DNA of 33,902 nucleotides, taken from a virus (lineage: Duplodnaviria > Heunggongvirae > Uroviricota > Caudoviricetes). The stretch is from IMG/VR virus record IMGVR_UViG_2778261509_000015. The stretch is one strand, 5' to 3'. The notes under the pieces are model-generated. The model did not search any database, was not told the DNA's origin, and worked only from the letters and a program-made list of their open reading frames with translations. Both the position numbers and the translations under genes were made by a program. Below, piece by piece: positions 14,901 to 33,902 of this stretch (the stretch's first letter is position 1; each line of letters begins with the position of its first letter).

Positions 14901-15428
14901 CTAGAGACTCTCTCCTTCCTCATCAGGAATTAATTCAGCAGCACAAGCCTCGTAGGATTTTTCCTGAAGAGTGTATCGCAGGTCATCAATGGCCTGCTGT
15001 ACAACGCCGACGGCCTGAGGAGTCAGGGCGCAATCGCGCTCAAGAACATCCGGAATTGTCTCCAGAACCTGGACGACAGCCTTTCTCATGGACGAATAGA
15101 CGATGACTACTTCATCAACGGGGATGAGTTTTCGCTGCTCCTTTTCCAGCTTGATCCTTTCATTTTCAGACTGGTACCAGTCCTTTCTCTCTTTCGGCTC
15201 CATACGGGATGGATCATGAACAGAGTCTGCTGCCTCATGCTTCACACTAAACAGGGCAGGCCCGACATGCTGCAGGGCGTAAACGGGGTTCCCCCTGACA
15301 GTCGCTGCCACAGGAGTGTTGGCCGCGAGGAGCCGTTTTTTTACTGTGTCCCGGTGAAGCCCAAAGGCCTCGGCGATTTTAAAAACACTCCAGTAATAAG
15401 CATCACCGATCCCGCTCACATTTGACAT
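14901..15428 (-). CDS. Terminase small subunit (Nu1-like, HTH)
   Basis: About 175 aa directly upstream of terminase large; ATG at 15428 with GGAG 8 nt upstream; DNA-binding N-terminus. Confidence 0.7.
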   Translation of the reverse strand: MSNVSGIGDAYYWSVFKIAEAFGLHRDTVKKRLLAANTPVAATVRGNPVYALQHVGPALFSVKHEAADSVHDPSRMEPKERKDWYQSENERIKLEKEQRKLIPVDEVVIVYSSMRKAVVQVLETIPDVLERDCALTPQAVGVVQQAIDDLRYTLQEKSYEACAAELIPDEEGESL

Positions 15429-15594
15429 AAGCAACTCCATCTGGCAGGTGAAAATCGGGTTTATTTATATATTTCAATTAATTGCAAACTAGTCTAATGA
15501 CAGGGAGAAAAAAATATTGTACAGGCGAAAAGAGAAATAACTTTTAATTATCAATAAATTACCGAACATGCTGCCGCCGCCATGGAAATGCAAA

Positions 15595-15630
15595 AACTAG
15601 CCTTTTTCCGCGACGCTCCCGCCCCGTGGC
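15595..15630. other. Candidate cos site (cosN-like), lambda-type variant
   Basis: Minus-strand ACGGGGCGGGAGCGTCGCGG resembles lambda cos GGGCGGCGACCTCGCGG as recalled; lies about 190 bp upstream of terminase small, as in lambda. Confidence 0.4.
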
Positions 15631-15870
15631 AAGGCCACCCCACCGGGAGGACCCATGAAAAATGAGAGCAATTATCATTTATGCTCAATTAAACATCAGC
15701 ATTATCGCAGCCCCTCACTGAAGGACTGCTGTAATGCTGATTGTTCAACATCAAAAAACCCAATCTGTTGCAAGTTATAAAAGCAACAAACGACATTGCG
15801 CGTTAAGATTTTCTTAATATTTAAGAAATATATTTTTTAATCTCATTTATTTTTGCAAAAGACTTTTCAT

Positions 15871-16446
15871 ATGCAGCGTCGAGAAATAAAGAAAATTACT
15901 TATTTAATCACTTTGATTTTAACTACTCTTTTGTTTGTTTATTTTTTAAGAACACCCACCACAATCAATATGAAACAGGCGCATAAAATAAATCAACAAC
16001 ACCAGACAATTTTCCTTATCCGTCACGGTGAACGATGTGACAGAAGCAAAAATGCATGTCTCTCAAGCAATAAAGGAATTACCGTCAATGGTGCCATTAA
16101 AGCTCGTGATTATGGAAAAATATTTAGCAATACTTTCCCGTCATTCAGCCTTTACTCCACGGATACCATACGGACAATGCAGACAGCCTGTTTTTTCTCT
16201 GGAGGAAAAGCAGCCTCCCGGATACCGTTGGCTGCAACATGCGGACTTGATGCTGCAAAGAACATACTCAAATTGTCATCCGATAATAAAACTACCGTTA
16301 TATTCACCCATAATCATTGCCTGACACAAATAGCAAAAAAAATGAAATGGTGGAAGTTAAAGCCAGAATATCTTGAAACACTGGTTCTTCATATCGAAAA
16401 CAATCGTCTCATTCTTGACGGAAAACTGACTCACGATAAAGCGTAA
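15871..16446 (+). CDS. Ais/PmrG-like histidine phosphatase (putative LPS core heptose(II)-phosphate phosphatase), N-terminal membrane anchor
   Basis: LIRHGERCDRS catalytic RHG motif, FTHNHCL motif, overall resemblance to E. coli Ais as recalled; ATG at 15871 (ORF track start 15853 is TTG); AT-rich flanks; opposite strand to late genes. Confidence 0.7.
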   Translation: MQRREIKKITYLITLILTTLLFVYFLRTPTTINMKQAHKINQQHQTIFLIRHGERCDRSKNACLSSNKGITVNGAIKARDYGKIFSNTFPSFSLYSTDTIRTMQTACFFSGGKAASRIPLAATCGLDAAKNILKLSSDNKTTVIFTHNHCLTQIAKKMKWWKLKPEYLETLVLHIENNRLILDGKLTHDKA

Positions 16447-16517
16447 CAATCATTCAAAGAGTCAACATATTTTCTGCATTAACCCCGAACAGTTCCTCTG
16501 CCGGGGTTTTGTATTAG

Positions 16518-16895
16518 TTATCGCCTCAACTGAAAATGCGGTCCGTCTTTCAGGCTAGTCCAGTCCCCGCCCCATTCGATGGCAGTTCCCAGCTCTGCGG
16601 CAGCCTGCTTAAATGCCTGCGCGATTTTCTCGTACAGAGGCCAGTCCCATGACACCTGGCTGCCAACCCAGGCCACAACATCCACCGCATCACCGGTCAG
16701 GTGGCGGCTGTTCATGGTCTGGCTCTTGCCTTCTGCAACCAGCTGTTTCTGGCGTTCTTTCGTGCGCAGGCCTTCCGTAATACCGAAATCAACCTCCGAC
16801 AGTTCAAGGGCGCGGCGAACTACAGCAACCAGCTGTGGTTTGACGCCTTCCAGATTTTTCTCGCTCCGGCGGCTGAATCTGAATTTACCCGACAT
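16518..16895 (-). CDS. Endolysin, peptidase M15-type (L-alanyl-D-glutamate / D-Ala-D-Ala peptidase fold)
   Basis: SRHLTGDAVDV and PHFQL zinc-ligand motifs; ATG at 16895 with GAGGTGA upstream (ORF track start 16901 is GTG); follows holin genes. Confidence 0.7.
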   Translation of the reverse strand: MSGKFRFSRRSEKNLEGVKPQLVAVVRRALELSEVDFGITEGLRTKERQKQLVAEGKSQTMNSRHLTGDAVDVVAWVGSQVSWDWPLYEKIAQAFKQAAAELGTAIEWGGDWTSLKDGPHFQLRR

Positions 16896-16897
16896 AT

Positions 16898-17173
16898 TCA
16901 CCTCAACAATGGAAAGATTCTTGTGACGTTCCCGCGTGCGCGTATCACCAGCACGCAGAACAGCAGATTAAAAAACACATCCAGCCAGCCCGTTGCTAAC
17001 GGGCGACCACACAGATAGCTGAGAGGCGCAAAGGCATACAGCAGCATCAGCAGCCAGGCCAGCCATGACATCAGCGGTTTATGTCTGGAATCACGGCGAC
17101 GATAAAAAAAGAGCGTCAGCACGATAACCGTGCATAACGCCACATTCAGCAATCCGGGAAGGTTACTTAACAT
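16898..17173 (-). CDS. Small 3-TM membrane protein in lysis cassette (second holin or antiholin candidate)
   Basis: ATG at 17173 with GGAGGAGG 5 nt upstream; 91 aa with three hydrophobic helices; overlaps holin stop and endolysin start. Confidence 0.45.
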   Translation of the reverse strand: MLSNLPGLLNVALCTVIVLTLFFYRRRDSRHKPLMSWLAWLLMLLYAFAPLSYLCGRPLATGWLDVFFNLLFCVLVIRARGNVTRIFPLLR

Positions 17174-17555
17174 TACCGCCTCCTCCGCCTCGCAAGCGGG
17201 AGAACAGTCCTGACACCAGCGATGCAATATCCTGCTGGTGGATGAACGACAGAATCTTCACCGACACCACAGACACCAGCACTGCACACAGCGCGTCGAC
17301 AGATTTACTGTGAAGCCCCAGTTTTTCGACCAGATAAGACGCCATCACATCCGCCCCCAGTACGCCGATAATAAACGACACCAGAAAATGCGCCGCCACC
17401 CGCCAGACAGAAAGCGCCTGCGGCATCGTTGCCACAAACAACGCCCCCGCGAACGCACCAAACACAATCCCGAAATCCGTTCCGGTGAACAGCCCGAATA
17501 CCGTCGCCCCTCCGAGCGCAGCCGCCGTGCCGGAACCGGATAAGGGTTCAGACAT
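17163..17555 (-). CDS. Putative holin (about 130 aa, 3-4 TM, Gly-rich C-terminal tail)
   Basis: ATG at 17555 with AGGAG 9 nt upstream; hydrophobic helices; first gene after tR'-like terminator and before endolysin. Confidence 0.5.
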   Translation of the reverse strand: MSEPLSGSGTAAALGGATVFGLFTGTDFGIVFGAFAGALFVATMPQALSVWRVAAHFLVSFIIGVLGADVMASYLVEKLGLHSKSVDALCAVLVSVVSVKILSFIHQQDIASLVSGLFSRLRGGGGGNVK

Positions 17556-17570
17556 ACTTTTTTCTCCTGT

Positions 17571-17596
17571 AAATAAAAAAGGGCCACCAGCGGCCC
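17571..17596 (-). terminator. Rho-independent terminator (tR'-like) just upstream of holin
   Basis: Minus strand GGGCCGCTGGTGGCCC followed by TTTTTTATTT, 15 nt before holin RBS. Confidence 0.6.
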
Positions 17597-17723
17597 GTAA
17601 AAAACAACACCCCGTCAAAGGCACCCACAGATACCTTTTGTGTGGTGTATTCAGATTTGACATACGCTGAGCAGGGCGAAGAAATGAAAAAGGCCCGCAG
17701 TAGCGAGCCATGAAGAAACTGAA

Positions 17724-17749
17724 TAAAAAAAAACCGCCTGGTACGGCGG
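17724..17749 (-). terminator. Second rho-independent terminator between tRNA-Gly and holin
   Basis: Minus strand CCGCCGTACCAGGCGG followed by TTTTTTTTT. Confidence 0.55.
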
Positions 17750-18013
17750 TTAAGATGAATTTCCAGGTTTTGCTTAATACGTGATTAATCTCAACGTTTT
17801 TTATAGATGTTAACAACATCGGAATGATGCATCACCGGCCCTGTCAGGAAATACAAAATCTCCACCGATAATGCACCATTACGCTGTTGTAAAAAAACAG
17901 CACTGGACTGTAACCGATATCACGTATTACAGAACAGGATGTGGATAAAGATTCAGGAAAACATCCCACATATAATATGTCAGTGCCCAAAACAACTTGG
18001 TATCGTCTACTGC

Positions 18014-18088
<75 letters not shown>

Positions 18089-18505
18089 ATACTATGCGGT
18101 CTTCAGTAATCACACGAATTACCGTGAAAGCCAGCACTGGTCTTTCCGACGGTAGTAACACCCCTGTGAACACCAAAATAACCGTCTTCCAGACCGACGA
18201 GAATACTAACGACATTTTTTCAGATATCAAAAATATATTTTGTTTTTAGTTTTTAATATATGTATGCATCTGTATCAGAAATATACAATTTATATCATTA
18301 CTAAATTAAAAACATTTCTCTGACGTCTGATTAAAACGTTCCTGTTCCAGTTCCGCGCCAATCACACATGGTCATTGCGTTTTACCAGTCCATCGCCACT
18401 ATCAGGCTGACCAGGGGACGCCCCACCCGAACTGCTGAGAATGCCAGGCACACAAAGAATAATGCCCGCCAAAGCGTTCCTGCATACAATGACTGCAAAA
18501 TTCAG

Positions 18506-19249
18506 TTATTCTTGAGCGGAGCCAGAACTCATCTCACTGAATGCAGCCATCCTGTAACCTTCCGGGGTGACCCCAAAATAACGCCTGAATACACTGATAA
18601 AATAAGATGTATTATTATAGCCACACTGCACAGCGATTCTGTTGATGGCACAGCTATATTGATGCAACAGCATTGCTGCCATTCTCATTCTCTCCGTAAG
18701 CAACAACTCACTGAAACATGTGCCTTCTTCTTTCAGTCTTTTTTTTAACAAACTTTCACTCATACATAACCGTGATGACACATCTCGCAGAGTCCAGTTT
18801 GCTGCAATGTCTGTATGAAACAACGCACCAAGCCTGCCGCTGATAGTACTGATACACGCGGTCATAAACGACGAAAACATTTTATCTGATGAAAAAAACG
18901 CCAGACACGAAAAGGAAAGCATTTCCGCTAAATTGTCCGTATGAATCTTTTCCTCATAAAGATAATCAATCAGGATGCCCATCAATTCTGGCCTGGGAAA
19001 ACTCATGCAAAGATATCGTGGCATTTTCCGGACTAAAACAACATCCTGTTTTACCCCACTACGCAACAGGTAACGGCTAATTGTCGATTCACTGAGACTT
19101 ATACGCCGAAAACATTCAGAAAAGGGCAATAACGGTCCAGCCCCTCCCCTGACAAGAAGTGCACTACCACTTTCCAGAGAGAGTACTTTTCCTTCGAAGA
19201 GCACAACAAACGGGGAATGAACAAAAATAACAGAACAGGCCTCATTCAT
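18506..19249 (-). CDS. AraC/XylS-family transcriptional regulator (AppY/YdeO/GadX-like)
   Basis: C-terminal AraC HTH (IAVQCGYNNTSYFISVFRRYFGVTPEGYR); N-terminus MNEACSVIF resembles AppY; ATG at 19249 (ORF track start 19357 is GTG); AT-rich flanks. Confidence 0.8.
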   Translation of the reverse strand: MNEACSVIFVHSPFVVLFEGKVLSLESGSALLVRGGAGPLLPFSECFRRISLSESTISRYLLRSGVKQDVVLVRKMPRYLCMSFPRPELMGILIDYLYEEKIHTDNLAEMLSFSCLAFFSSDKMFSSFMTACISTISGRLGALFHTDIAANWTLRDVSSRLCMSESLLKKRLKEEGTCFSELLLTERMRMAAMLLHQYSCAINRIAVQCGYNNTSYFISVFRRYFGVTPEGYRMAAFSEMSSGSAQE

Positions 19250-19372
19250 ATCAATATCCCTGACATTACTGGTCGCAAGATAAGTATATATCACTTTACA
19301 AAAATGCAAGCCGTGAGCCCCGAATTCACGACCACCAGCGTGTTTACTGTACTGCACCAGGTTTACAGGTAC

Positions 19373-19395
19373 AAAAAAACCCGCTCGACGGCGGG
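19373..19395 (-). terminator. Hairpin CCCGC-N6-GCGGG with T7 run on minus strand, upstream of AraC gene
   Basis: Read directly: aaaaaaacccgctcgacggcgggttt. Confidence 0.5.
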
Positions 19396-19822
19396 TTTAA
19401 GCTGTGTGGCGAAGTAACCACCCTTAACAGCATAACCAATTTTTTACGTACGTAAACCTCTAAACAATATTTGTGAGAATGATATCGAGTGTTCAAAACA
19501 CCACCACAATCACATAAGGAAAAATAAACAAATAATCATTAAATAATTTCTGGCGTTATTTTTAGTGCATTTAAATTAAATAGATGAATTATAAAACGCT
19601 TATAAATAACAACCTTTAATATGATTTTGCTACCAAATTTATTTTCTTTCAGGTAATAGTCATGTACAGCATGCAATAGAAAAAGTTCAGATGAAAATAG
19701 AGATCTAGCTCACAATTTAAATAAGAATCTAAAACTTACATCTTGAATTAATCACATTGATTAGATGAATATTTGTCGCGCAGGGCATCATTTTTTAATA
19801 AATTTCAAAAAAAGGTCTCACG

Positions 19823-20920
19823 ATGAAAAAATTAACAGTGGCAATTTCTGCTGTAGCTGCATCAGTACTGTTGGCGATGTCTGCTCAGGCAGCAGAGATT
19901 TATAATAAAGACAGTAACAAACTCGATCTGTACGGAAAAGTTAATGCTAAGCACTACTTCTCCTCTAACGAGGCAGATGATGGTGACACTACTTATGTTC
20001 GTCTGGGCTTCAAAGGCGAAACCCAAATCAACGATCAGCTGACTGGTTTCGGTCAGTGGGAATACGAATTCAAAGGCAACCGTGCTGAATCTCAGGGTTC
20101 TTCCAAAGATAAAACCCGTCTTGCGTTCGCTGGCCTGAAATTCGGTGACTACGGCTCCATCGATTATGGTCGTAACTACGGTGTAGCATACGATATCGGT
20201 GCGTGGACTGACGTTCTGCCAGAATTCGGTGGTGATACCTGGACTCAAACCGACGTATTCATGACTCAGCGTGCAACTGGTGTTGCAACTTACCGTAATA
20301 ACGACTTCTTCGGTCTGGTTGATGGCCTGAACTTTGCAGCTCAGTACCAGGGCAAAAACGATCGTAGCGATTTCGAGAACTACACCGAAGGTAACGGTGA
20401 TGGCTTCGGTTTCTCTGCTACCTATGAATACGAAGGATTCGGTATCGGTGCAACTTATGCGAAATCTGATCGTACCGACACTCAAGTTTATGCAGGGAAA
20501 GTTCTTCCTGAAGTATTTGCTTCCGGTAAAAATGCAGAAGTTTGGGCCGCAGGTCTAAAATATGACGCTAACAACATTTACCTAGCCACTACCTATTCTG
20601 AAACCCAGAATATGACTGTATTTGCTGATTACTTCGTTGCTAATAAAGCTCAAAACTTCGAAGCTGTTGCACAATATCAGTTCGATTTCGGTCTGCGTCC
20701 GTCCGTTGCTTACCTGCAATCTAAAGGTAAGGATCTTGGAGTATGGGGCGATCAGGACTTAGTCAAATATGTTGATGTAGGTGCAACCTATTACTTCAAC
20801 AAAAATATGTCTACTTTCGTTGATTACAAAATCAACCTGCTTGACAAAAATGACTTCACTAAAACACTCGGTGTAAGCACTGACAACATCGTTGCTGCAG
20901 GATTGGTTTACCAGTTCTAA
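19823..20920 (+). CDS. Outer membrane general porin (OmpC/OmpF/NmpC/Lc family)
   Basis: Signal peptide [24 protein letters not shown]-terminal [18 protein letters not shown]-terminal Phe (VYQF), 365 aa; opposite strand to late genes as nmpC in DLP12. Confidence 0.9.
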
Positions 20921-21055
20921 TTTGGTTACTAAAAGATATGTTGCGGGAGGCGTTGCCTCCCCAACATATAAGTGGCTCCCTCAAGCCACTTCCTTTAGAA
21001 GCACTACCTTGCTTCTGACTATATAAACCTTCTGTTATATATTACCCTTTATTTT

Positions 21056-25427: not shown

Positions 25428-26256
25428 GACGATGCCCTCCGCTGATATTCAGGAGACGGTGAATATGAAAATTAGCCTTATCCGCCAGACGAATACGTTC
25501 AGCCTGCAAGTTAAGAAGGGTTTCTACCAAAACCTGATGCGCCTGCGGATCCGAAAGAGTTACCTTGCGCAGAGCACGTAGTGCAGTTGTTACATAACTG
25601 AGTTTATGTAAGTCTTCATCATTCAGACGAGTGAGGGCTGGGACAGTAGCCATGATGGCAGCCTCCTTGATCGGTGAAATACTTCCACCACCGGAAACGC
25701 CAATTTCGCTGGTGGTGAACTGAACGGGGTTGGCGTAACCGGTGATCAAGGAAACCGGCGCATCTTTCGATGCCCCCGCCCAGCCCACCATAACTTTGAT
25801 GTGAGCAAATGCGGACGATAAAAAAGACGCTGGCGCGTCATATATCGCCTTGATCAATTCCAGGACGCCAATCCCGGCACCCGCTTTATAAGGTGCCTGA
25901 ACAGTGTAACGTCCCGGAATGGCAGAATCAATGTGCTGGTGGTCCTTCACACTCAACAAAATCACGCCTGAATTTCCACAAAGGACTAAAGCACTCATGC
26001 GGGTAGTCTTTGCGAAGATAGATAACGCGCTGTGTTTCTGGCTCCCAACGAATAACATGGACATAAAGCCCTCTTCCATCACGAAACCAGCGGTTAAGTT
26101 CCTGCACAACTCGCCCCCCACAGTCAGGTAAAGTTCTCTGTGGTTACTTACAGCCAGGTGATTTGGTAATCTGCATTCATGCCGTAACAACAGGTGTTCA
26201 GCGACGCTGACCACCAGCTGTTGCGACAAACGGTTATTTGCCGTTAAACTGTTCAT
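25420..26256 (-). CDS. Hypothetical phage protein (278 aa), function unknown
   Basis: Long ORF, ATG with GGAGAA upstream, ATGA coupling to upstream gene; size and position resemble Rac ydaU-like genes, but no sequence recall. Confidence 0.5.
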   Translation of the reverse strand: MNSLTANNRLSQQLVVSVAEHLLLRHECRLPNHLAVSNHRELYLTVGGELCRNLTAGFVMEEGFMSMLFVGSQKHSALSIFAKTTRMSALVLCGNSGVILLSVKDHQHIDSAIPGRYTVQAPYKAGAGIGVLELIKAIYDAPASFLSSAFAHIKVMVGWAGASKDAPVSLITGYANPVQFTTSEIGVSGGGSISPIKEAAIMATVPALTRLNDEDLHKLSYVTTALRALRKVTLSDPQAHQVLVETLLNLQAERIRLADKANFHIHRLLNISGGHRHA

Positions 26257-26847: not shown

Positions 26848-27048
26848 TTAATCTTTCGGATAGATATCCGGTCTTAAGTCAGATTTCGTAATTGCACCTG
26901 ACGTGCATTGCTCAAGTTTTTTAGCCAGCACAAAACTGGCTTTTTTATAACCATTGAAAACCAGCCGTAAGTAGCCTGGTGTTGAGCCAACTTTTCCGGC
27001 CAACTCGCCCTGCTGTTCTTTGGTTAAAGAGTCCCAATACGCTTTCAT
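26848..27048 (-). CDS. Cro-like repressor (YdaS-family HTH)
   Basis: ATG at 27048 with GGAGG upstream gives 66-aa MKAYWDSLTKEQQGELAGKVGSTPGYLRLVFNGYKK...SDLRPDIY; divergent from the cI-like gene. Confidence 0.65.
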   Translation of the reverse strand: MKAYWDSLTKEQQGELAGKVGSTPGYLRLVFNGYKKASFVLAKKLEQCTSGAITKSDLRPDIYPKD

Positions 27049-27053
27049 ACAAT

Positions 27054-27132
27054 ATGTACCTCCGATATACATATTACATGATTGAGATGAACCTTCAAGA
27101 TACTTGTACCCTATCGGTACAAAGGTTTTAAT
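27054..27132. promoter_or_regulatory. Immunity switch: operators O2 (27054..27072) and O1 (27104..27122) with divergent pR-like and pRM-like promoters
   Basis: O1 is the palindrome TTGTACCctatcGGTACAA; O2 is ATGTACCtccgaTATACAT. pR (minus) has -35 TTGAAG, 16 bp spacer, -10 TAATAT; pRM (plus) has -35 TTGTAC, 17 bp spacer, -10 TTTAAT and would give a leaderless cI mRNA. Confidence 0.5.
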
Positions 27133-27138
27133 TTCGTT

Positions 27139-27813
27139 ATGAAAACAGTCCATGACATCCGGCGGTCTAACGCCAGAAAACTGAGAGATGGTGTTGGCGG
27201 GAATTCTTCCTTTGCCACCATGATTGATCGCGAGCCAACCCAGACCAGCAGGTTTATGGGAGATGGTGCTACTAAAAATATCGGTGACAGCATGGCACGG
27301 CACATCGAAAAATGTTTCGACCTTCCTGTCGGATGGCTTGATCAAGAACACCAGACAACAAACATCACAAAAAAACCTGATGTTTCAATTACTAACAAAC
27401 AAATAACGTTAGTCCCTGTCATATCATGGGTACAGGCCGGAGCATGGAAAGAAGTTGGCTATTCTGAGGTTGATTTGAGCACAGCAGAAACTTATCCCTG
27501 CCCTGTACCCTGTGGCGAAATGACTTATATCTTGCGGGTGATTGGTGATTCAATGATTGATGAGTACCGCCCGGGAGACATGATTTTTGTAGATCCTGAA
27601 GTCCCTGCCTGCCACGGTGACGACGTTATTGCATTGATGCACGATACAGGCGAAACCACCTTTAAGCGGTTGATAGAAGATGGAACACAGCGTTACCTCA
27701 AAGCATTAAACCCAAACTGGCCTGAACCTTACATTAAGATCAACGGTAATTGCTCTATAATTGGTACAGTAATTTTCTCAGGAAAACCAAGAAGATACAA
27801 AATAAAGGCCTAA
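27139..27813 (+). CDS. CI-like repressor with C-terminal S24 (LexA-like) autopeptidase domain
   Basis: 224 aa; C-terminal GDSM...KR motifs of S24 peptidases; divergent from cro-like gene; start codon abuts predicted pRM start site. Confidence 0.8.
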   Translation: MKTVHDIRRSNARKLRDGVGGNSSFATMIDREPTQTSRFMGDGATKNIGDSMARHIEKCFDLPVGWLDQEHQTTNITKKPDVSITNKQITLVPVISWVQAGAWKEVGYSEVDLSTAETYPCPVPCGEMTYILRVIGDSMIDEYRPGDMIFVDPEVPACHGDDVIALMHDTGETTFKRLIEDGTQRYLKALNPNWPEPYIKINGNCSIIGTVIFSGKPRRYKIKA

Positions 27814-27825
27814 TCAATATTTATA

Positions 27826-27848
27826 ACCTGCTTCGGCAGGTTTTTTTA
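27826..27848 (+). terminator. Rho-independent terminator after cI (stem AACCTGC / GCAGGTT, UUCG loop, T7 run)
   Basis: Read directly: aacctgcttcggcaggttttttt, 13 nt after cI stop. Confidence 0.8.
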
Positions 27849-27851
27849 TAC

Positions 27852-27879
27852 TTGACAATGTACCCATGAGATACATAAT
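27852..27879 (+). promoter_or_regulatory. pL-like sigma70 promoter with overlapping operator O3
   Basis: -35 TTGACA (27852..27857), 16 bp spacer, -10 CATAAT (27874..27879); operator-like ATGTACCcatgaGATACAT (27858..27876) fills the spacer and -10. Confidence 0.6.
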
Positions 27880-28296
27880 GTATCTAAAAGAAACATGTCA
27901 CAGGCAAGATTAAACAAAATTTGGTTGTAACACGGCGTATGGCACATGCGTCGTTAGCGGTCTGGGGACGTTAAAGGGGACAATCCACTCCTTGCTCGGG
28001 CAAACAAACCAGGTAGCCGGAATGTGCAAGTCAATGATGATGCTGATAAGACGCCTAACCAGCGTGGCGATCCGGTTTGACGCCTGGGAAGAGACCAGGG
28101 TGCAACGATGAGGGCATTTATGGAGCCGCGACAAAGTGTGGTGCCGTAACTGGCTAAGTGCTCTCAGCGTTGTGGTAATCCGCGAAATGGCGCGGCGGTA
28201 AGTATGGCGGGGTTACTCTTTCCCCGTTGAGGACACCGGATTGTCAGGTTGACCATACGCCTGAGTGACAACCCCACCACAACAGCCACTGCTTTG

Positions 28297-28341
28297 GCGG
28301 TACCAGTTTGTACACTTTCTTCCGGCTGGTACCGCTCTTTT
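28297..28341 (+). terminator. Terminator-like inverted repeat in the pL leader (GCGGTACCAG...CTGGTACCGC + TCTTTTT)
   Basis: 10-bp perfect arms at 28297..28306 and 28326..28335 with 19-nt loop, followed by a T-run. Confidence 0.4.
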
Positions 28342-28479
28342 TACAAAACAGAGAAGAGCATCACCGGACGACGGGCTCATAACCCAATCCACCCGGGCGG
28401 CTGCCACCGCAGGTGTTCTTCTCTGTTTTGTGGAGAAACCAACCGACCTTGCAGGGTCGATATGATGAGGAGCAGCAAA

Positions 28480-28842
28480 ATGGCTAGCGAACGCAGTACT
28501 GATGTGCAGGCATTTATCGGGGAGCTGGACGGCGGCGTATTTGAAACCAAAATCGGCGCAGTTCTCAGTGAAGTCGCTTCAGGTGTGATGAACACGAAAA
28601 CCAAAGGTAAGGTCTCACTCAACTTGGAAATCGAACCATTTGATGAGAACCGTGTGAAAATCAAACACAAACTCTCATATGTTCGCCCGACTAACCGCGG
28701 GAAAATTTCCGAAGAAGACACCACCGAAACGCCGATGTATGTCAATCGCGGTGGTCGCCTGACTATTCTGCAGGAAGACCAGGGACAATTACTGACTCTT
28801 GCCGGTGAACCTGACGGAAAACTCCGCGCAGCAGGTCATTAA
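28480..28842 (+). CDS. YfdP-like hypothetical protein (120 aa)
   Basis: ATG at 28480 with GAGGAG 8 nt upstream; size and position match CPS-53 yfdP (sizes recalled); first gene of the yfdPQRST-like operon. Confidence 0.5.
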   Translation: MASERSTDVQAFIGELDGGVFETKIGAVLSEVASGVMNTKTKGKVSLNLEIEPFDENRVKIKHKLSYVRPTNRGKISEEDTTETPMYVNRGGRLTILQEDQGQLLTLAGEPDGKLRAAGH

Positions 28843-28907
28843 TATCGTTCTTAATTAACCGATTATTTATCTCATCACTGAATATCTTTATATAGTGAGG
28901 ACTTATT

Positions 28908-29732
28908 ATGTCTCAGAACTTAGACGCAACCGCAATTAATCAAATCCATGCCCTTATTTCTGCTCAGGGTGTTAATGAAATTATCAGTAAGATTGGTGCC
29001 GATGCGGTGGCATTGCCTGAGAATTTCCGCATTCATGATCTGGAAAAATTTAATTTAAATCGCTTCCGTTTCCGTGGTGCGCTTTCCACTGCCAGCATCG
29101 ATGACTTTACCCGTTATTCTAAAGATCTTGCAGATGAAGGCACCCGCTGCTTTATCGATGCCGATAATATGCGTGCCGTCAGTGTGCTTAACCTGGGTAC
29201 TATTGATGAACCAGGTCACGCAGATAACACCGCCACTCTCAAACTGAAAAAGACAGCACCGTTTTCTGCTCTGTTGTCTGTTAATGGCGAGCGTAACTCC
29301 CAGAAGTCACTGGCAGAATGGATTGAAGACTGGGCCGACTACCTAGTGGGCTTTGATGCTAATGGTGACGCCATTCAGGCAACAAAAGCGGCTGCGGCTG
29401 TCCGTAAAATCACGATTGAAGCAAACCAGACCGCTGATTTTGAAGATAATGACTTCAGCGGCAAACGCTCCCTGATGGAGTCTGTCGAAGCGAAGACCAA
29501 AGATATTATGCCAGTGGCATTTGAATTTAAATGCGTTCCGTTTGAAGGTCTGAAAGAACGTCCATTTAAATTACGCCTCAGCATTATCACTGGCGATCGT
29601 CCTGTACTGGTTCTGCGCATTATTCAGCTGGAAGCAGTGCAGGAAGAAATGGCTAACGAATTTCGTGATCTGCTTGTTGAGAAATTCAAAGACAGCAAAG
29701 TAGAAACCTTTATTGGTACTTTCACCGCCTGA
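28908..29732 (+). CDS. YfdQ-like DUF2303 protein (274 aa)
   Basis: ATG with GTGAGGA upstream; length identical to CPS-53 YfdQ as recalled; gene order P-Q-R-S-T conserved. Confidence 0.65.
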
Positions 29733-29859
29733 TTTTATTACTGCAAATGCCCCTGCGGGGGCATTTATGGAAACGTAATTAACTCAATAATCGCCGGATG
29801 GTGAGGGCTTCCTTTTACCAGAATTCAGCGCGGTGCAGCGCATATACGTGGAGAACAAA

Positions 29860-30396
29860 ATGTCATTTATTAAAACTTTTTCCGGTAAGCATTTTTATTA
29901 TGACAGGATAAATAAAGACGACATCGATATTAACGATATCGCGGTTTCCCTTTCAAATATCTGTCGCTTTGCCGGTCATCTTTCGCACTTCTACAGCGTC
30001 GCCCAACATGCGGTTCTTTGCAGCCAGCTGGTACCGCAGGAATTTGCTTTTGAAGCGTTAATGCATGATGCAACAGAAGCGTATTGCCAGGACATCCCCG
30101 CTCCACTGAAACGCCTTCTTCCTGACTATAAACAGATGGAAGAAAAAATAGACGCCGTAATCCGTGAGAAATACGGGTTACCCCCGGTTATGAGTACGCC
30201 CGTGAAATATGCCGATCTCATCATGCTGGCAACCGAACGCCGCGATCTCGGGCTTGATGATGGCTCTTTCTGGCCTGTACTGGAAGGCATCCCGGCAACA
30301 GAGATGTTCAACGTGATTCCACTGGCACCGGGCCATGCCTACGGGATGTTTATGGAACGTTTTAACGAGTTATCGGAGTTACGCAAATGCGCATGA
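29860..30396 (+). CDS. YfdR-like HD-domain 5'-deoxynucleotidase (178 aa)
   Basis: ATG at 29860 with GGAGAA upstream; H...HD metal-binding motifs (VAQHAV, MHDATEAY); length matches YfdR. Confidence 0.7.
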   Translation: MSFIKTFSGKHFYYDRINKDDIDINDIAVSLSNICRFAGHLSHFYSVAQHAVLCSQLVPQEFAFEALMHDATEAYCQDIPAPLKRLLPDYKQMEEKIDAVIREKYGLPPVMSTPVKYADLIMLATERRDLGLDDGSFWPVLEGIPATEMFNVIPLAPGHAYGMFMERFNELSELRKCA

Positions 30397-30749
30397 ATGT
30401 TTTCGAAATGGAAGGGTTTCTTCGTGGGAGATGTGTACCGCGAGATCTGAAAGTGAATGAAACAGATGCTGAATACCTGGTGCGTAAATTCGATGCGCTT
30501 GAAGCTAAATGTGCAGCACAGGAAAACAAAGTAATACCAGTGTCAACTGAACTGCCACCAGCAAATGAAAGTGTTTTGTTATTCGATGCTAACGGAGAAG
30601 GCTGGCTAATTGGCTGGCGTTCTCTCTGGTACACCTGGGGACAAAAAGAAACCGGAGAATGGCAGTGGACATTTCAGGTCGGGGACCTTGAAAACGTCAA
30701 TATCACTCACTGGGCAGTAATGCCAAAAGCACCGGAGGCTGGAGCATAA
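30387..30749 (+). CDS. YfdS-like DUF551 protein (120 aa)
   Basis: ATG with GGAG upstream, overlaps upstream stop; Trp-rich C-terminal domain; length matches YfdS. Confidence 0.6.
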   Translation: MRMNVFEMEGFLRGRCVPRDLKVNETDAEYLVRKFDALEAKCAAQENKVIPVSTELPPANESVLLFDANGEGWLIGWRSLWYTWGQKETGEWQWTFQVGDLENVNITHWAVMPKAPEAGA

Positions 30750-31054
30750 TGACCACTTTTACCGACAAAGAACTGATTAAAGAAATTAAAGAGCGTATCA
30801 GCAGCCTTGACGTGCGAGACGATATTGAGCGCCGTGCTTATGAAATCGCACTCCTATCTCTGGAAGTAGAACCAGATGAACGCGAAGCTTATGAATTATT
30901 CATGGAAAAGCGTTTCGGTGACTTAGTAGATCGTCGGAGAGCAAAAAACGGCGATAACGAATACATGGCATGGGATATGACTCTCGGTTGGATCGTCTGG
31001 CAGCAACGAGCTGGTATCCATTTTTCAACAATGTCACAACAAGAGGTGAAATAA
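30749..31054 (+). CDS. YfdT-like hypothetical protein (101 aa)
   Basis: TAATG coupling to upstream gene; length matches YfdT. Confidence 0.5.
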   Translation: MTTFTDKELIKEIKERISSLDVRDDIERRAYEIALLSLEVEPDEREAYELFMEKRFGDLVDRRRAKNGDNEYMAWDMTLGWIVWQQRAGIHFSTMSQQEVK

Positions 31055-31404
31055 TGGAGCCATACAGCCTCACACTCGATGAGGCCTGTCATTTTCTCAA
31101 GATATCCAGACCGACTGCCATTAACTGGATACGCACAGGGCGTCTTCAGGCAACACGCAAAGATCCCACTAAGAATAAATCTCCTTACCTCACAACACGA
31201 CAAGCCTGCATTGCGGCTCTTCAGTCTCCGCTGCATACTGTCCAGGTGAGCGCGGGTGATGGCATAACAGAGGAAAGAAAATGTCACTCTTCCGCAGAGG
31301 TGAAATATGGTACGCCAGTTTCACATTGCCGAACGGTAAAAGATTTAAACAGTCTCTTGGAACAAAGGACAAAAGGCAGGCGACAGAACTCCATGACAAG
31401 CTAA
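31054..31404 (+). CDS. Excisionase (AlpA/MerR-like HTH)
   Basis: ATG at 31054 with AAGAGGTGA upstream gives [33 protein letters not shown]; reading frame runs 124 nt into the integrase gene. Confidence 0.55.
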
Positions 31405-32444
31405 AGGCTGAAGCATGGCGGGTCAGCAAACTTGGTGAAATACCTGATATAACGTTCGAGGAAGCGTGTGTCAGGTGGCTTGAAGAGAAAGCACATAAAA
31501 AATCACTGGACGATGACAAAAGCCGGATCGGATTCTGGCTTCAACATTTCGCAGGAATGCAACTAAGAGACATTACTGAATCAAAAATTTATTCAGCAAT
31601 GCAGAAAATGACGAACCGGCGTCATGAGGAAAACTGGAAACTCAGGGCAGAAGCATGCAGAAAAAAAGGGAAACCTGTTCCAGAATACACGCCAAAACCA
31701 GCGTCCGTTGCAACGAAGGCTACGCATCTTTCATTTATAAAGGCCCTACTAAGAGCCGCAGAGCGTGAATGGAAAATGCTGGATAAGGCACCAATTATTA
31801 AAGTGCCCCAACCAAAGAATAAACGGATCCGCTGGCTGGAGCCCCATGAAGCACAAAGGCTGATTGATGAATGTCCGGAGCCATTAAAGTCTGTTGTTGA
31901 ATTTGCACTGGCAACAGGCCTAAGACGCTCGAACATCATCAACCTTGAATGGCAACAAATAGATATGCAGCGCCGGGTGGCATGGATAAACCCGGAAGAG
32001 AGTAAATCAAACCGCGCAATTGGCGTTGCGCTGAATGATACTGCATGTCGCGTATTGAAAAAACAAATCGGGAATCATCACCGTTGGGTATTTGTGTACA
32101 AGGAAAGCTGTACCAAACCAGACGGAACGAAAGCGCCAACAGTCAGGAAGATGCGGTATGACGCAAACACAGCCTGGAAAGCGGCGCTGAGACGGGCTGG
32201 TATTGATGATTTCAGATTTCACGACTTGAGACACACCTGGGCAAGTTGGCTGGTTCAAGCCGGAGTCCCGTTGTCAGTGTTACAGGAAATGGGAGGCTGG
32301 GAGTCTATCGAAATGGTTCGTCGATATGCTCACCTTGCACCTAATCACCTTACCGAACACGCACGGCAAATAGACTCGATCCTAAACCCATCGGTCCCAA
32401 ATTTGTCCCAGTCAAAAAATAAGGAAGGTACTAATGATGTGTAA
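31281..32444 (+). CDS. Tyrosine integrase (phage integrase family)
   Basis: 387 aa; catalytic R...HDLRHTWAS...RYAH motifs; GAGGAAAG RBS; ends 14 bp from tRNA-Thr 3' end. Confidence 0.9.
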
Positions 32445-32458
32445 CTTATTGATTTAAA

Positions 32459-32534
32459 TGGTGCCGATAATAGGAGTCGAACCTACGACCTTCGCATTAC
32501 GAATGCGCTGCTCTACCAACTGAGCTATATCGGC
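32459..32534 (-). tRNA. thrW: tRNA-Thr (anticodon CGU), host thrW; prophage attachment site
   Basis: Minus-strand GCCGATATAGCTCAGTTGGTAGAGCAGCGCATTCGTAATGCGAAGGTCGTAGGTTCGACTCCTATTATCGGCACCA; anticodon loop TTCGTAA; lies between integrase and proA as in E. coli. Confidence 0.9.
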
Positions 32535-32648
32535 CCTGAAAGGACATGTTCACGAACGTGAATCACGGTGGACAAGGTTAAAACTAACCGGGCGATGCGT
32601 CAATGGCCTTGTGAATCAAATGGCTACTTTTGCATCACCCGGTTTTAT

Positions 32649-33902
32649 TTACGCACGAATGGTGTAATCACCAATGCCGATCCACTTGTAAGTGGTCAGT
32701 GCTTCCAGCCCCATTGGGCCACGCGCGTGGAGTTTTTGTGTGCTTACCGCCACTTCCGCACCCAGACCAAACTGGCCGCCGTCGGTAAAACGCGTAGAGG
32801 CGTTAACGTAAACAGCGGACGAATCCACTTCGTTAACAAAACGCTGGGCGTTGCGCATATCGCGGGTCAGGATCGCATCGGAGTGTTGTGTGCCGTGTTC
32901 ACGAATATGGGCGATGGCATCGTCAAGATCGCTGACGATTTTGACGTTCAAATCTAATGACAGAAACTCATCGTCATACTCTTCGGCTTTAACAGCAACC
33001 ACCTTCGCAGGGCCTGCCTGCAACTGCGCCAGTGCAGCTGCATCTGCGTGTAATGTCACGCCGCTTTCCGCCATTTGTTTGCTTAATGCGGGCAGGAAGC
33101 TATCGGCGATGTTTTTATTCACCAGCAACGTTTCAACCGTATTACATGTGCTCGGACGCTGAGTTTTCGCGTTGACGATCACTTTTAATGCTTCAGCGAT
33201 CTCTACACTTTCATCAACGTAAATATGGCATACGCCTATACCACCTGTGATCACCGGGATTGTCGACTGTTCACGGCACAGTTTATGCAAACCAGCGCCA
33301 CCACGCGGGATCAGCATGTCGATGTATTTATCCATACGCAGCATTTCACTGACCAGCGCACGGTCAGGATTATCAATCGCCTGCACGGCACCCGCCGGTA
33401 AGCCGCAGGATTTCAGGGCGTCCTGAATCACCGCCACCGTTGCAGCGTTAGTGCGACACGTTTCTTTGCCACCGCGCAGGATCACCGCATTACCGGTTTT
33501 CAGGCACAGCGAAGCGACATCAACCGTCACGTTCGGGCGCGCTTCATAAATCACGCCAATAACCCCCAGCGGTACGCGACGACGCTCAAGACGCAGGCCG
33601 CTGTCCAGTACGCTGCCATCGATTACCTGCCCCACCGGATCGGCGAGGTTACACACCTGGCGCACATCATCGGCAATGCCTTTCAGCCGTGCGGGCGTCA
33701 GTGCCAGACGGTCAAGCATCGCTTCGCCAAGGCCATTGGCACGCGCGTCAGCAACATCCTGGGCGTTAGCGTTGAGGATGATTTCGCTTTGTGCTTCCAG
33801 TTCATCGGCGATTTTTTCCAGCACGCGATTTTTTTCGCGGCTGGAGAGTTGCGCTAATTTATACGAGGCTTGCTTCGCGGCAATGCCCATTTGTTCCAGC
33901 AT
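32649..33902 (-). CDS. proA: Gamma-glutamyl phosphate reductase (host gene)
   Basis: 417 aa [38 protein letters not shown]..., essentially identical to E. coli ProA as recalled; ATG occupies the last three bases of the window. Confidence 0.95.

Follow-up and report, generated by a model that had tools for sequence, protein, structure and literature searches.

It is probable (we estimate roughly 0.7) that positions 28480–31054 of the window, the whole stretch of 33,902 nucleotides that was analysed, hold the yfdPQRST module of an apparently complete SfV-like prophage with e14 immunity at thrW, and that the coding part of the leftward early unit, for which we propose SOS-triggered expression, begins with this module. 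The operon itself is already known, since its genes are named in RefSeq and both its early-left occurrence and the link between YfdR and DnaA have been published. New here are the pattern of a yfdP-yfdQ core and a leader RNA of about 180 nt that is supported by covariation and absent from Rfam 15. The plus strand carries, in this order, a cI-like S24 repressor gene, a terminator, a sigma-70 promoter with two operators, a leader of about 590 nt, yfdP-yfdQ, a hairpin and the overlapping genes yfdR-yfdS-yfdT-xis-int. Cleavage of the repressor in SOS induction would cause the pL-like promoter to fire. Transcription past the terminator in the leader would then yield YfdP and YfdQ first and the coupled R-S-T-xis-int products thereafter, which may damp host initiation, the reuse of dNMPs, or both, during excision of the prophage.

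Five open reading frames, all on the plus strand, make up the module: yfdP (28480–28842, 120 aa), yfdQ (28908–29732, 274 aa, DUF2303), yfdR (29860–30396, 178 aa, an HD-domain phosphohydrolase of the 5'-deoxynucleotidase type), yfdS (30387–30749, 120 aa, with a C-terminal DUF551) and yfdT (30749–31054, 101 aa, PHROG 660). An earlier note on this DNA had described five co-directional genes of exactly these lengths over the same positions and had proposed a likeness to yfdPQRST of prophage CPS-53. The alignment bears this out: global protein identity to K-12 is 99.2% for YfdP and 99.3% for YfdQ, YfdR reaches 97.8% (4 of 178 residues differ), YfdS 95.8% and YfdT 96.0%, and order, orientation and all five lengths equal those of the CPS-53 genes in K-12 BW25113. 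The DNA is 96.9% identical to K-12 over positions 28461–31107. At a 100%-identical locus in E. coli PEC422, RefSeq annotates yfdP, a YfdQ family protein, yfdR as 5'-deoxynucleotidase, a phage protein and yfdT. As judged by these alignments, the five genes are orthologues of yfdP, yfdQ, yfdR, yfdS and yfdT of CPS-53. Translational coupling, which had been claimed for the entire set, holds for one part of it. The yfdR and yfdS frames overlap by 10 nt, yfdS and yfdT by 1 nt, and yfdT and the excisionase gene xis by 1 nt (TAATG), but yfdP and yfdQ are separated by 65 nt and yfdQ and yfdR by 127 nt. The latter gap contains a GC hairpin (29745–29766, plus strand; AAAUGCCCC-UGCG-GGGGCAUUU), which is annotated as a terminator in phage Ayreon and is a putative weak terminator or attenuator.

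Downstream of the module lie xis (31054–31404, plus strand, HTH_17), whose start overlaps the yfdT stop, and a tyrosine integrase gene of P22/SfV type (31281–32444, plus strand; RefSeq start at 31326) that abuts thrW and proA. The tRNA-Thr gene thrW (32459–32534, minus strand) adjoins the integrase. The genes belong to an SfV-like prophage that is integrated at thrW next to proA and is matched by E. coli PEC422 DNA at 100% identity. CPS-53 (KpLE1) shares the five genes, their order and lengths and an excisionase gene in the next position (torI in K-12, xis here). However, in K-12 it is a decayed prophage at argW, whereas the prophage at thrW looks complete and has its regulatory region. Homology to CPS-53 begins at 28461, only 19 nt before yfdP, where a truncated gene on the opposite strand abuts yfdP in K-12; cI, pL, operators and leader are all missing there. 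In Shigella phage SfV the same module is present as orf32–orf28 with 98% DNA identity, together with the cI-cro-operator region, xis-int, thrW attachment and morphogenesis genes of the myovirus type. The two differ in that SfV has orf33 and a terminator, and no covariance-model match, where the structured leader RNA stands here, and in that gtr O-antigen genes lie beyond int in SfV, whereas the window runs into thrW and proA. The module also occurs in SfIV, SfII, cdtI, Ayreon, 2H10 and Stx2c phages, and the yfd cluster in early-left operons of lambdoid phages has been published (PMC12315714).

The window supplies the native regulatory context that is missing in K-12, namely repressor, operators, pL, leader and the coupling to xis-int. 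Consequently, the hypothesis developed in K-12 becomes testable in an inducible prophage instead of with multicopy plasmids. The repressor gene (27139–27813, plus strand, 224 aa, annotated ymfK) encodes a cI-like LexA/S24 protein of the ymfK/cohE type with matches to Pfam Peptidase_S24 (1.5e-26) and PHROG 4 (transcriptional repressor). Its translation retains the Ala-Gly cleavage site, the GDSM serine and the KR lysine motif, which makes SOS induction plausible. Divergent from it is a cro-like HTH gene, a ymfT homologue as annotated by RefSeq at the identical locus of PEC422 (26848–27048, minus strand). Between the two lies an OR-like operator cluster (27054–27122), at the place where SfV is annotated with a 'putative operator region'; compared with ATGTA-N9-TACAT, its sites have no mismatch (27054–27072) or two mismatches each (27087–27105 and 27104–27122). 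The repressor gene is followed by an intrinsic terminator (27825–27850, plus strand) with the stem AACCTGC/GCAGGTT (27825–27842) and a run of seven T, also annotated in SfV and Ayreon. Just past it is the pL-like promoter with its operators (27852–27896, plus strand). This near-consensus sigma-70 promoter, TTGACA-16-CATAAT at 27852–27879, has 11 of 12 matches and is annotated as a promoter in phage Ayreon. It is overlapped by OL1 (27858–27876, no mismatch) and OL2 (27878–27896, one mismatch). In the whole window, ATGTA-N9-TACAT with at most one mismatch occurs only at 27054 in the cI-cro intergenic region, at 27858 and at 27878. Hence, the repressor-controlled pL-like promoter assumed before is present as a sigma-70 promoter after cI, overlapped by two operators of the cI-cro type.

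This arrangement resembles the pL operon of lambda, where repressor gene and operon likewise run in one direction, the promoter immediately after the repressor gene has overlapping operators shared with the cI-cro region, and the operon ends with xis-int. Unlike lambda, the unit lacks an N gene, a recognisable nutL boxB and exo/bet/gam; two pL operators are seen here versus three in lambda, and the pL leader forms a long structured RNA that includes a terminator-like hairpin. No open reading frame with coding support, N-like or other, was found between 27897 and 28479, nor was a sigma-70-like promoter found on the plus strand between 27880 and 28480.

The less ordinary part of the region is this leader, a structured and untranslated stretch of about 590 nt between the pL-like promoter and yfdP. 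Conserved RNA structures thus stand ahead of the operon, and one of them belongs to a widespread family without an Rfam entry. This one is a structured RNA at 27907–28134 (plus strand) with a core at about 27933–28116. From its 5' end it comprises a 9-bp hairpin with a GCA triloop and a multi-branch domain ending in GGUAGCCGGAAUGUGCAAG, followed by a hairpin with the loop YUMACCA, by GGCGAUNNGGUGUGAC and by a hairpin with the loop GAAGAGA. The covariance model R1 scores 153 bits at the leader and finds a single copy in the window. Among 66 sequences, 96.6% of cells are paired, against 29–44% in slid controls, and compensatory changes affect 11 pairs and 116 cells. A weak signal (mean of 5.0 contiguous pairs versus 3.8 in shuffles) suggests that the ACCA loop pairs with the 5' flank in a pseudoknot. 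The RNA was found in 1833 complete E. coli genomes, about one third, and is unannotated in all of them. It also occurs in P1-like plasmids, before P1 ban, and beside tRNA genes, always co-directional with its transcription unit. Rfam 15 gave no match at E<=1 over 4.8 kb and, over 600 nt, only chance-level matches on the opposite strand with E of about 1. ARAGORN detected no tRNA or tmRNA in the leader, and a literal search of its sequence in literature texts returned 0 matches. A minus-strand open reading frame (27910–28134) and a 39-aa frame annotated in Ayreon both lie inside the RNA, but a coding function was rejected because indels there map to the loops of hairpins and the substitutions compensate one another.

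A known RNA for comparison is put of HK022, a cis-acting processive antiterminator, which measures about 70 nt, consists of two stem-loops and follows both pL and pR (PMC9378689). Both are structured RNAs transcribed straight from an early-left promoter, upstream of terminators, in a temperate coliphage without an N-like protein. In contrast to put, the present RNA has about 180 nt, is multi-branched and single-copy, and also stands beside tRNAs and before P1 ban. Identity with put is therefore ruled out by size, architecture and copy number. The leader RNA might nevertheless act as a put-like processive antiterminator, or as a processing or stability element, and would then carry RNA polymerase through the terminator that lies 140 nt before yfdP.

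Three further elements complete the leader. Segment B (28169–28291, plus strand) is about 89% conserved in unrelated coliphages. It is followed by a terminator-like, GC-rich hairpin (28296–28342, plus strand) with 13 bp and then CUCUUUUU (dG -21.2, z -4.95). Of 76 loci from other genera, about 40 have a hairpin with a T-run equally far from yfdP, with stems that differ and covary. The T-run and ACAAAAC after this hairpin resemble boxA, and the boxA-like CGCUCUUUUUACAA is found at 28334. Directly upstream of yfdP is a three-way hairpin (28338–28436, plus strand), an inverted repeat with a 25-bp closing stem and two inner hairpins, followed by GGAGAAAC (dG -49, z -6.75). Its sequence and architecture are kept upstream of yfdP in Mangrovibacter, Kosakonia, Klebsiella, Mixta, Phytobacter and others. 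Since the terminator-like hairpin lies between pL and yfdP, firing of pL may not suffice for expression. A more far-reaching reading, which we consider improbable, is that undescribed RNA elements gate yfdPQ and with them RST-xis-int, that the leader RNA of about 180 nt may act in cis, and that YfdP and YfdQ may together build a large oligomeric machine whose fold belongs to a new class.

Of 5426 complete E. coli genomes, 3941 (about 73%) contain a match to the module. In a gene-neighbourhood survey of 80 species-representative loci, yfdP is directly upstream of yfdQ in all 79 that have upstream DNA, whereas yfdR is next after the pair in 59 of the 80; yfdS is present in 6 and yfdT in 4. The pairing extends to Marinobacter, Vibrio, Photobacterium and Kistimonas at 31–52% identity and is also seen in Xylella and Xanthomonas phages. 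Gene order singles out yfdP and yfdQ as the invariant and ancient core, with yfdR often in third place and yfdS and yfdT as accessories. YfdR is missing from a quarter of these loci, so the module cannot have DnaA targeting as its core function, and a study of it should centre on YfdP-YfdQ as the conserved unit rather than on YfdR-S-T.

It is quite possible, if somewhat short of even odds, that YfdP and YfdQ are a self-contained, large oligomeric assembly of two proteins which acts on phage or host DNA, on replication or on a host defence and represents the true function of the locus, with R, S and T exchangeable and the effect on DnaA a side activity of over-produced YfdR. Besides the invariant adjacency of P and Q in distantly related lineages, against a variable presence of R, S and T, this explanation draws on the hairpin that parts Q from R and on YfdP 91–120 and YfdQ 172–197. 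Both segments are highly conserved yet predicted to be disordered, as is typical of partner-binding regions, and the latter holds a 14-residue motif. YfdQ matches Pfam PF10065 (DUF2303) over residues 7–272 with 309.7 bits (cut-off 26.6) and is homologous to PDB 9o7m, 'YfdQ Protein' (1.2e-44), an entry with 36 chains. No publication behind this entry was found in a literature search. Furthermore, virions of Burkholderia phage JC1 were found to contain its DUF2303 protein. Against this, inhibition at oriC in K-12 needed yfdQ together with yfdR, so that Q and R cooperate there (PMC4776307), and no fold or family match yields a biochemical activity. A recombinase role was considered unlikely by the authors of PMC12315714, since complete Rec modules are found alongside the cluster.

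For YfdR, the claimed H...HD metal-binding motif is kept (H50, H69-D70 and D119), as are E73 and D78. H69, D70, E73, D78 and D119 do not vary among 52 homologues from other genera, and the conservation of H50 is at least 90%. These residues align with PDB 2gz4 (match 3.3e-14), Agrobacterium Atu1052, so that YfdR has the H...HD...D metal ligands and the E and D after HD in common with this protein and with E. coli YfbR. Sequence likeness to YfbR is, however, marginal (Pfam YfbR-like 25.2 bits, cut-off 25.9; HD_3 17.5 versus 22.5; NCBIfam equivalog 20.5 against a cut-off of 122), whereas PHROG 318, 'dNMP phosphatase', is matched at 2.7e-110. Two reports on CPS-53 named in the earlier note, DnaA binding by YfdR and inhibition at oriC upon overexpression, were both located in the literature. 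K-12 YfdR binds domain I of DnaA in a Phe46-dependent manner, at a surface also used by DiaA and DnaB, and multicopy yfdQRT or yfdQRS lowers initiation at oriC (Noguchi & Katayama 2016, PMC4776307). For this inhibition yfdP is dispensable, despite being the gene most tightly linked to yfdQ, and deletion in K-12 had no replication phenotype (PMC4776307). The same authors concede in their Discussion that the overexpression effect is possibly an artefact. Replication arrest or an altered dNMP pool in lytic growth is an extrapolation from K-12 multicopy experiments. K-12 YfdR is described, in work as cited in PMC4776307, as an HD-domain 5'-deoxynucleotidase with weak nucleotide affinity; this much weaker affinity and the binding of DnaA distinguish it from YfbR-type enzymes.

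From these features a second alternative arises, which we regard as rather unlikely: YfdR would dephosphorylate dNMPs early after induction and so block the reuse of host nucleotides or blunt nucleotide-dependent defences, the binding of DnaA being incidental. The invariant catalytic HD residues are consistent with such a role. So is the spread of the family, which is widespread in phages of unrelated hosts with different DnaA, among them those of Bacillus, Caulobacter, Rhizobium, Vibrio and Pseudomonas, although no known defence or anti-defence model is matched. In such phages the family is annotated as deoxyribonucleoside 5'-monophosphate phosphatase.

Most unlikely is a moron-like role, in which the lysogen would express the genes without need of pL and they would aid stress tolerance of the host rather than lytic growth: the terminator-like hairpin would insulate yfdP from pL, K-12 keeps the genes despite the loss of cI, pL and leader, and mild sensitivity to MMS/H2O2 has been reported for yfdQ mutants (in literature as cited in PMC4776307) and likewise for yfdS mutants, but no sigma-70-like promoter was found in the leader downstream of pL, a co-directional S24 repressor gene recurs upstream in 40 of the 80 loci, and R-S-T is coupled translationally to xis-int, which must stay silent in a stable lysogen.

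A PDB sequence search with YfdP, YfdS and YfdT gave nothing significant. A single solved homologue is available for YfdQ (PDB 9o7m) and none for YfdP. None of the five proteins belongs to a PADLOC family, and a defence or anti-defence assignment was ruled out by the absence of PADLOC and NCBIfam matches. The C-terminal half of YfdS marginally matches Pfam PF04448 (DUF551; 22.2 bits, cut-off 22), and the protein matches PHROG 583 at 1.1e-82.

The five genes of the yfdP-T module were found by ORF listing of 27000–33902, co-directional on the + strand and exactly where the earlier note had put them: yfdP (28480–28842, 120 aa from the RefSeq ATG), yfdQ (28908–29732, 274 aa), yfdR (29860–30396, 178 aa), yfdS (30387–30749, 120 aa) and yfdT (30749–31054, 101 aa). 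A megablast search with 28200–31300 against 5,426 complete E. coli genomes gave matches in 3941 of them, with at least 80% of the query covered in 1649; the match was 100% in E. coli PEC422 and, across 28461–31107, 96.9% in K-12 BW25113. The annotation beneath the K-12 match reads, in order, yfdP, yfdQ, yfdR, 'phage protein' (yfdS), yfdT and torI. Global protein alignments confirm the proposed orthology to the CPS-53 genes, with equal lengths and identities of 99.2, 99.3, 97.8, 95.8 and 96.0% for YfdP, YfdQ, YfdR, YfdS and YfdT. Since ORF coordinates, K-12 DNA match, annotation and protein identities agree, the yfdPQRST observation is real and far beyond chance. The identity and location of the module are, however, already known, because the functional phages SfV (orf32–orf28), SfIV, SfII, cdtI, Ayreon, 2H10 and Stx2c phages carry the same module at 97–98% identity. 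Translational coupling, which had been assumed for all five genes, holds only in part: yfdR/yfdS overlap by 10 nt, yfdS/yfdT by 1 nt and yfdT/xis by 1 nt (TAATG), whereas gaps of 65 and 127 nt lie between yfdP and yfdQ and between yfdQ and yfdR, respectively. Each gene is preceded by its own Shine-Dalgarno sequence.

The identical PEC422 region is a complete-looking prophage according to its RefSeq annotation, with Mu-like baseplate and contractile tail genes, HK97-type head genes, terminase, lysis genes, Q, yfdP-T, xis, int and an e14-type immunity region (ymfK, ymfT, ymfL). At its 3' end the window contains int (31281–32444), a tRNA-Thr gene (32459–32534, − strand) and proA.

Which of the genes belong together was analyzed in 80 species-representative genomic loci encoding YfdQ relatives. 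In all 79 loci having upstream DNA, yfdP lies directly upstream of yfdQ, and this adjacency persists at 31–52% identity in Marinobacter, Vibrio, Photobacterium and Kistimonas, where yfdR is absent. A downstream yfdR was found in 59/80 loci, across many Enterobacterales genera; yfdS-like and yfdT-like sequences occur in six and four loci, respectively. Hence, P-Q forms the core of the module, R is a frequent member and the accessory genes are mosaic. In 40 of the 80 loci, an S24 repressor gene of the same orientation is located upstream, and the slot as first coding block behind the repressor gene is conserved.

YfdQ belongs to DUF2303 (309.7 bits, Pfam) and YfdS gives a marginal DUF551 match, while nothing in the Pfam copy searched matches YfdP or YfdT. 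None of the five proteins matches in PADLOC, and in NCBIfam YfdR alone does so, weakly. The predicted structures of YfdQ (pLDDT 78) and YfdP (pLDDT 73) were searched against BFVD, and the matches were solely DUF2303 or uncharacterised proteins, as far as Gordonia phages. Strongly conserved stretches of both proteins (YfdP 91–120, YfdQ 172–197) are predicted to be disordered. A profile search of PDB sequences retrieved entry 9o7m ('YfdQ Protein'), 36 chains of one sequence from Xanthomonas/Xylella phages with about 45% identity to YfdQ; a literature search found no publication for it. A YfdP homologue is encoded directly upstream of this yfdQ-type gene as well (hhalign probability 99%). In the Xanthomonas/Xylella phage locus (L337 4032–5286), recombinase, exonuclease and SSB genes lie downstream of the YfdP-YfdQ homologues.

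YfdR matches PHROG 318, 'deoxyribonucleoside 5' monophosphate phosphatase' (2.7e-110), and pdb entry 2gz4 (3.3e-14), and lies just below the cut-off of Pfam YfbR-like (25.2 versus 25.9 bits). The HD motif attributed to it is borne out by 52 homologues from other genera, in which H69, D70, E73, D78 and D119 never vary and H50 is kept in at least 90%. The family is common in phages of Bacillus, Caulobacter, Rhizobium, Vibrio and Pseudomonas. The reports on DnaA binding and inhibition of initiation, which the earlier note mentions for CPS-53, are those of Noguchi & Katayama 2016 (PMC4776307). There, binding of YfdR to DnaA domain I depends on Phe46, and YfdR is a moderate competitor of DiaA and DnaB; multicopy yfdQRT or yfdQRS inhibits initiation in wild type and suppresses over-initiation, yfdP is dispensable in the oriC-initiation assay, and deletion has no phenotype. 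The K-12 copy behind these functional results is without native promoter and leader. In K-12 (L001 5294–6020), homology to the window prophage starts only 19 nt before yfdP (window 28461), and a truncated opposite-strand HTH gene takes the place of the cI gene, pL, operators and the whole leader; therefore, K-12 yfdPQRST is without its native control region. The idea that, through the operon, induction is coupled to an arrest of host replication or to dNMP changes is reasonable and may apply here. For the P-Q module, the comparative data make such a coupling an unlikely core function. Overall, the reading given in the earlier note finds support in part.

The proposed control by a repressor-dependent pL-like promoter is backed by the sequence. 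The ORF translation of the repressor gene (27139–27813; Peptidase_S24, 1.5e-26) shows that the Ala-Gly site and the GDSM and KR motifs are retained; the gene is followed by a terminator (27825–27842, + strand) and the promoter TTGACA-16-CATAAT (27852–27879, + strand; 11/12 positions match). A 19–20-nt repeat is common to the pL region and the cI-cro intergenic region. In the whole window, ATGTA-N9-TACAT with 0 or 1 mismatch occurs only at 27054 (the cI-cro operator OR), 27858 and 27878, the latter two overlapping pL. Operator region, terminator and promoter are likewise annotated in the SfV and Ayreon records.

The distance from pL to yfdP is about 590 nt, in which PGAP annotates no gene and no N-like ORF is present. 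This leader is a mosaic and forms a far more stable fold than shuffled sequences do (z −5.5). Its segment at 27919–28175 has DNA matches of 78–83% in three contexts: in phage P1, RCS47 and D6 (P1-like plasmids) between a tRNA 3' end and ban, in the epsilon15-like phages O157 typing phage 9, TL-2011b and HEMP4 directly upstream of tRNA-Arg, and in Kosakonia, Phytobacter, Citrobacter and Klebsiella prophages between cI and yfdP. Exact-pattern scans of IMG/VR yielded more than 250 loci, i.e. 174 unique sequences in 66 clusters at 90% identity. In the 66-sequence alignment with its RNAalifold structure, standard pairs occupy 96.6% of cells, compared with 29–44% when partners are slid by 1–3 columns, and two-sided changes are found in 11 pairs and 116 cells. 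Covariation gives good support to three helices; three more are invariant or show one-sided changes only. The covariance model detects one copy in the window (27907–28134, 153 bits) and none after pR, and Rfam 15 contains no match. We regard this multi-branched element of about 180 nt as a genuine structured RNA that is apparently uncatalogued. It is present in 1833 of the 5426 complete E. coli genomes and annotated in none, and SfV and K-12 are without it. Among 163 unique instances, 59 have a same-strand S24 repressor gene upstream (median 181 nt), 45 are followed by yfdP and 41 adjoin a same-strand tRNA; the remaining genes on the 3' side are varied, P1 ban among them. An identity as HK022 put does not fit. 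The RNA might act in cis on transcription or processing. Together with the conserved P-Q pair it is worth following up.

Two further structures stand about 45–185 nt 5' of yfdP (+ strand): a 13-bp GC-rich hairpin followed by CUCUUUUU (28296–28336; dG −21.2, z −4.95) and a three-way hairpin of about 100 nt (28338–28436; dG −49, z −6.75). Many Enterobacterales genera keep this architecture in front of yfdP, with stems that covary. In other genera, about 40 of 76 loci have a GC hairpin of different stem sequence plus a T-run at equal distance from yfdP; the long three-way hairpin and the ensuing GGAGAAAC are also conserved. The 28296–28336 hairpin and the T-run after it look like an intrinsic terminator or attenuator travelling with yfdP, and the T-run plus ACAAAAC is a putative boxA-like sequence. 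A hairpin between yfdQ and yfdR (29745–29766, + strand) is annotated as terminator in Ayreon. Leader segment B (28169–28291, + strand) is about 89% conserved in the otherwise different coliphages PPompW, mEp460_ev081 and vB_EcoM-606R7.

Elsewhere in the window, a C4 antisense RNA (25708–25795; Rfam, 82 bits) adjoins isrK (25820–25896, 64 bits) on the − strand of the early-right region, near ash-family and DUF4222 genes; the pair (25708–25896) is an immI/IsrK-type antirepressor control module. The G+C content is 0.37–0.48 over 15000–21000, a stretch covering HNH/terminase-proximal, lysis and Q-proximal genes, versus 0.51–0.58 in the morphogenesis genes. Within the lysis region, ARAGORN and the Rfam tRNA model (65.6 bits) identify a tRNA-Gly gene (anticodon UCC; 18014–18088, − strand), which RefSeq does not annotate at the identical PEC422 locus.
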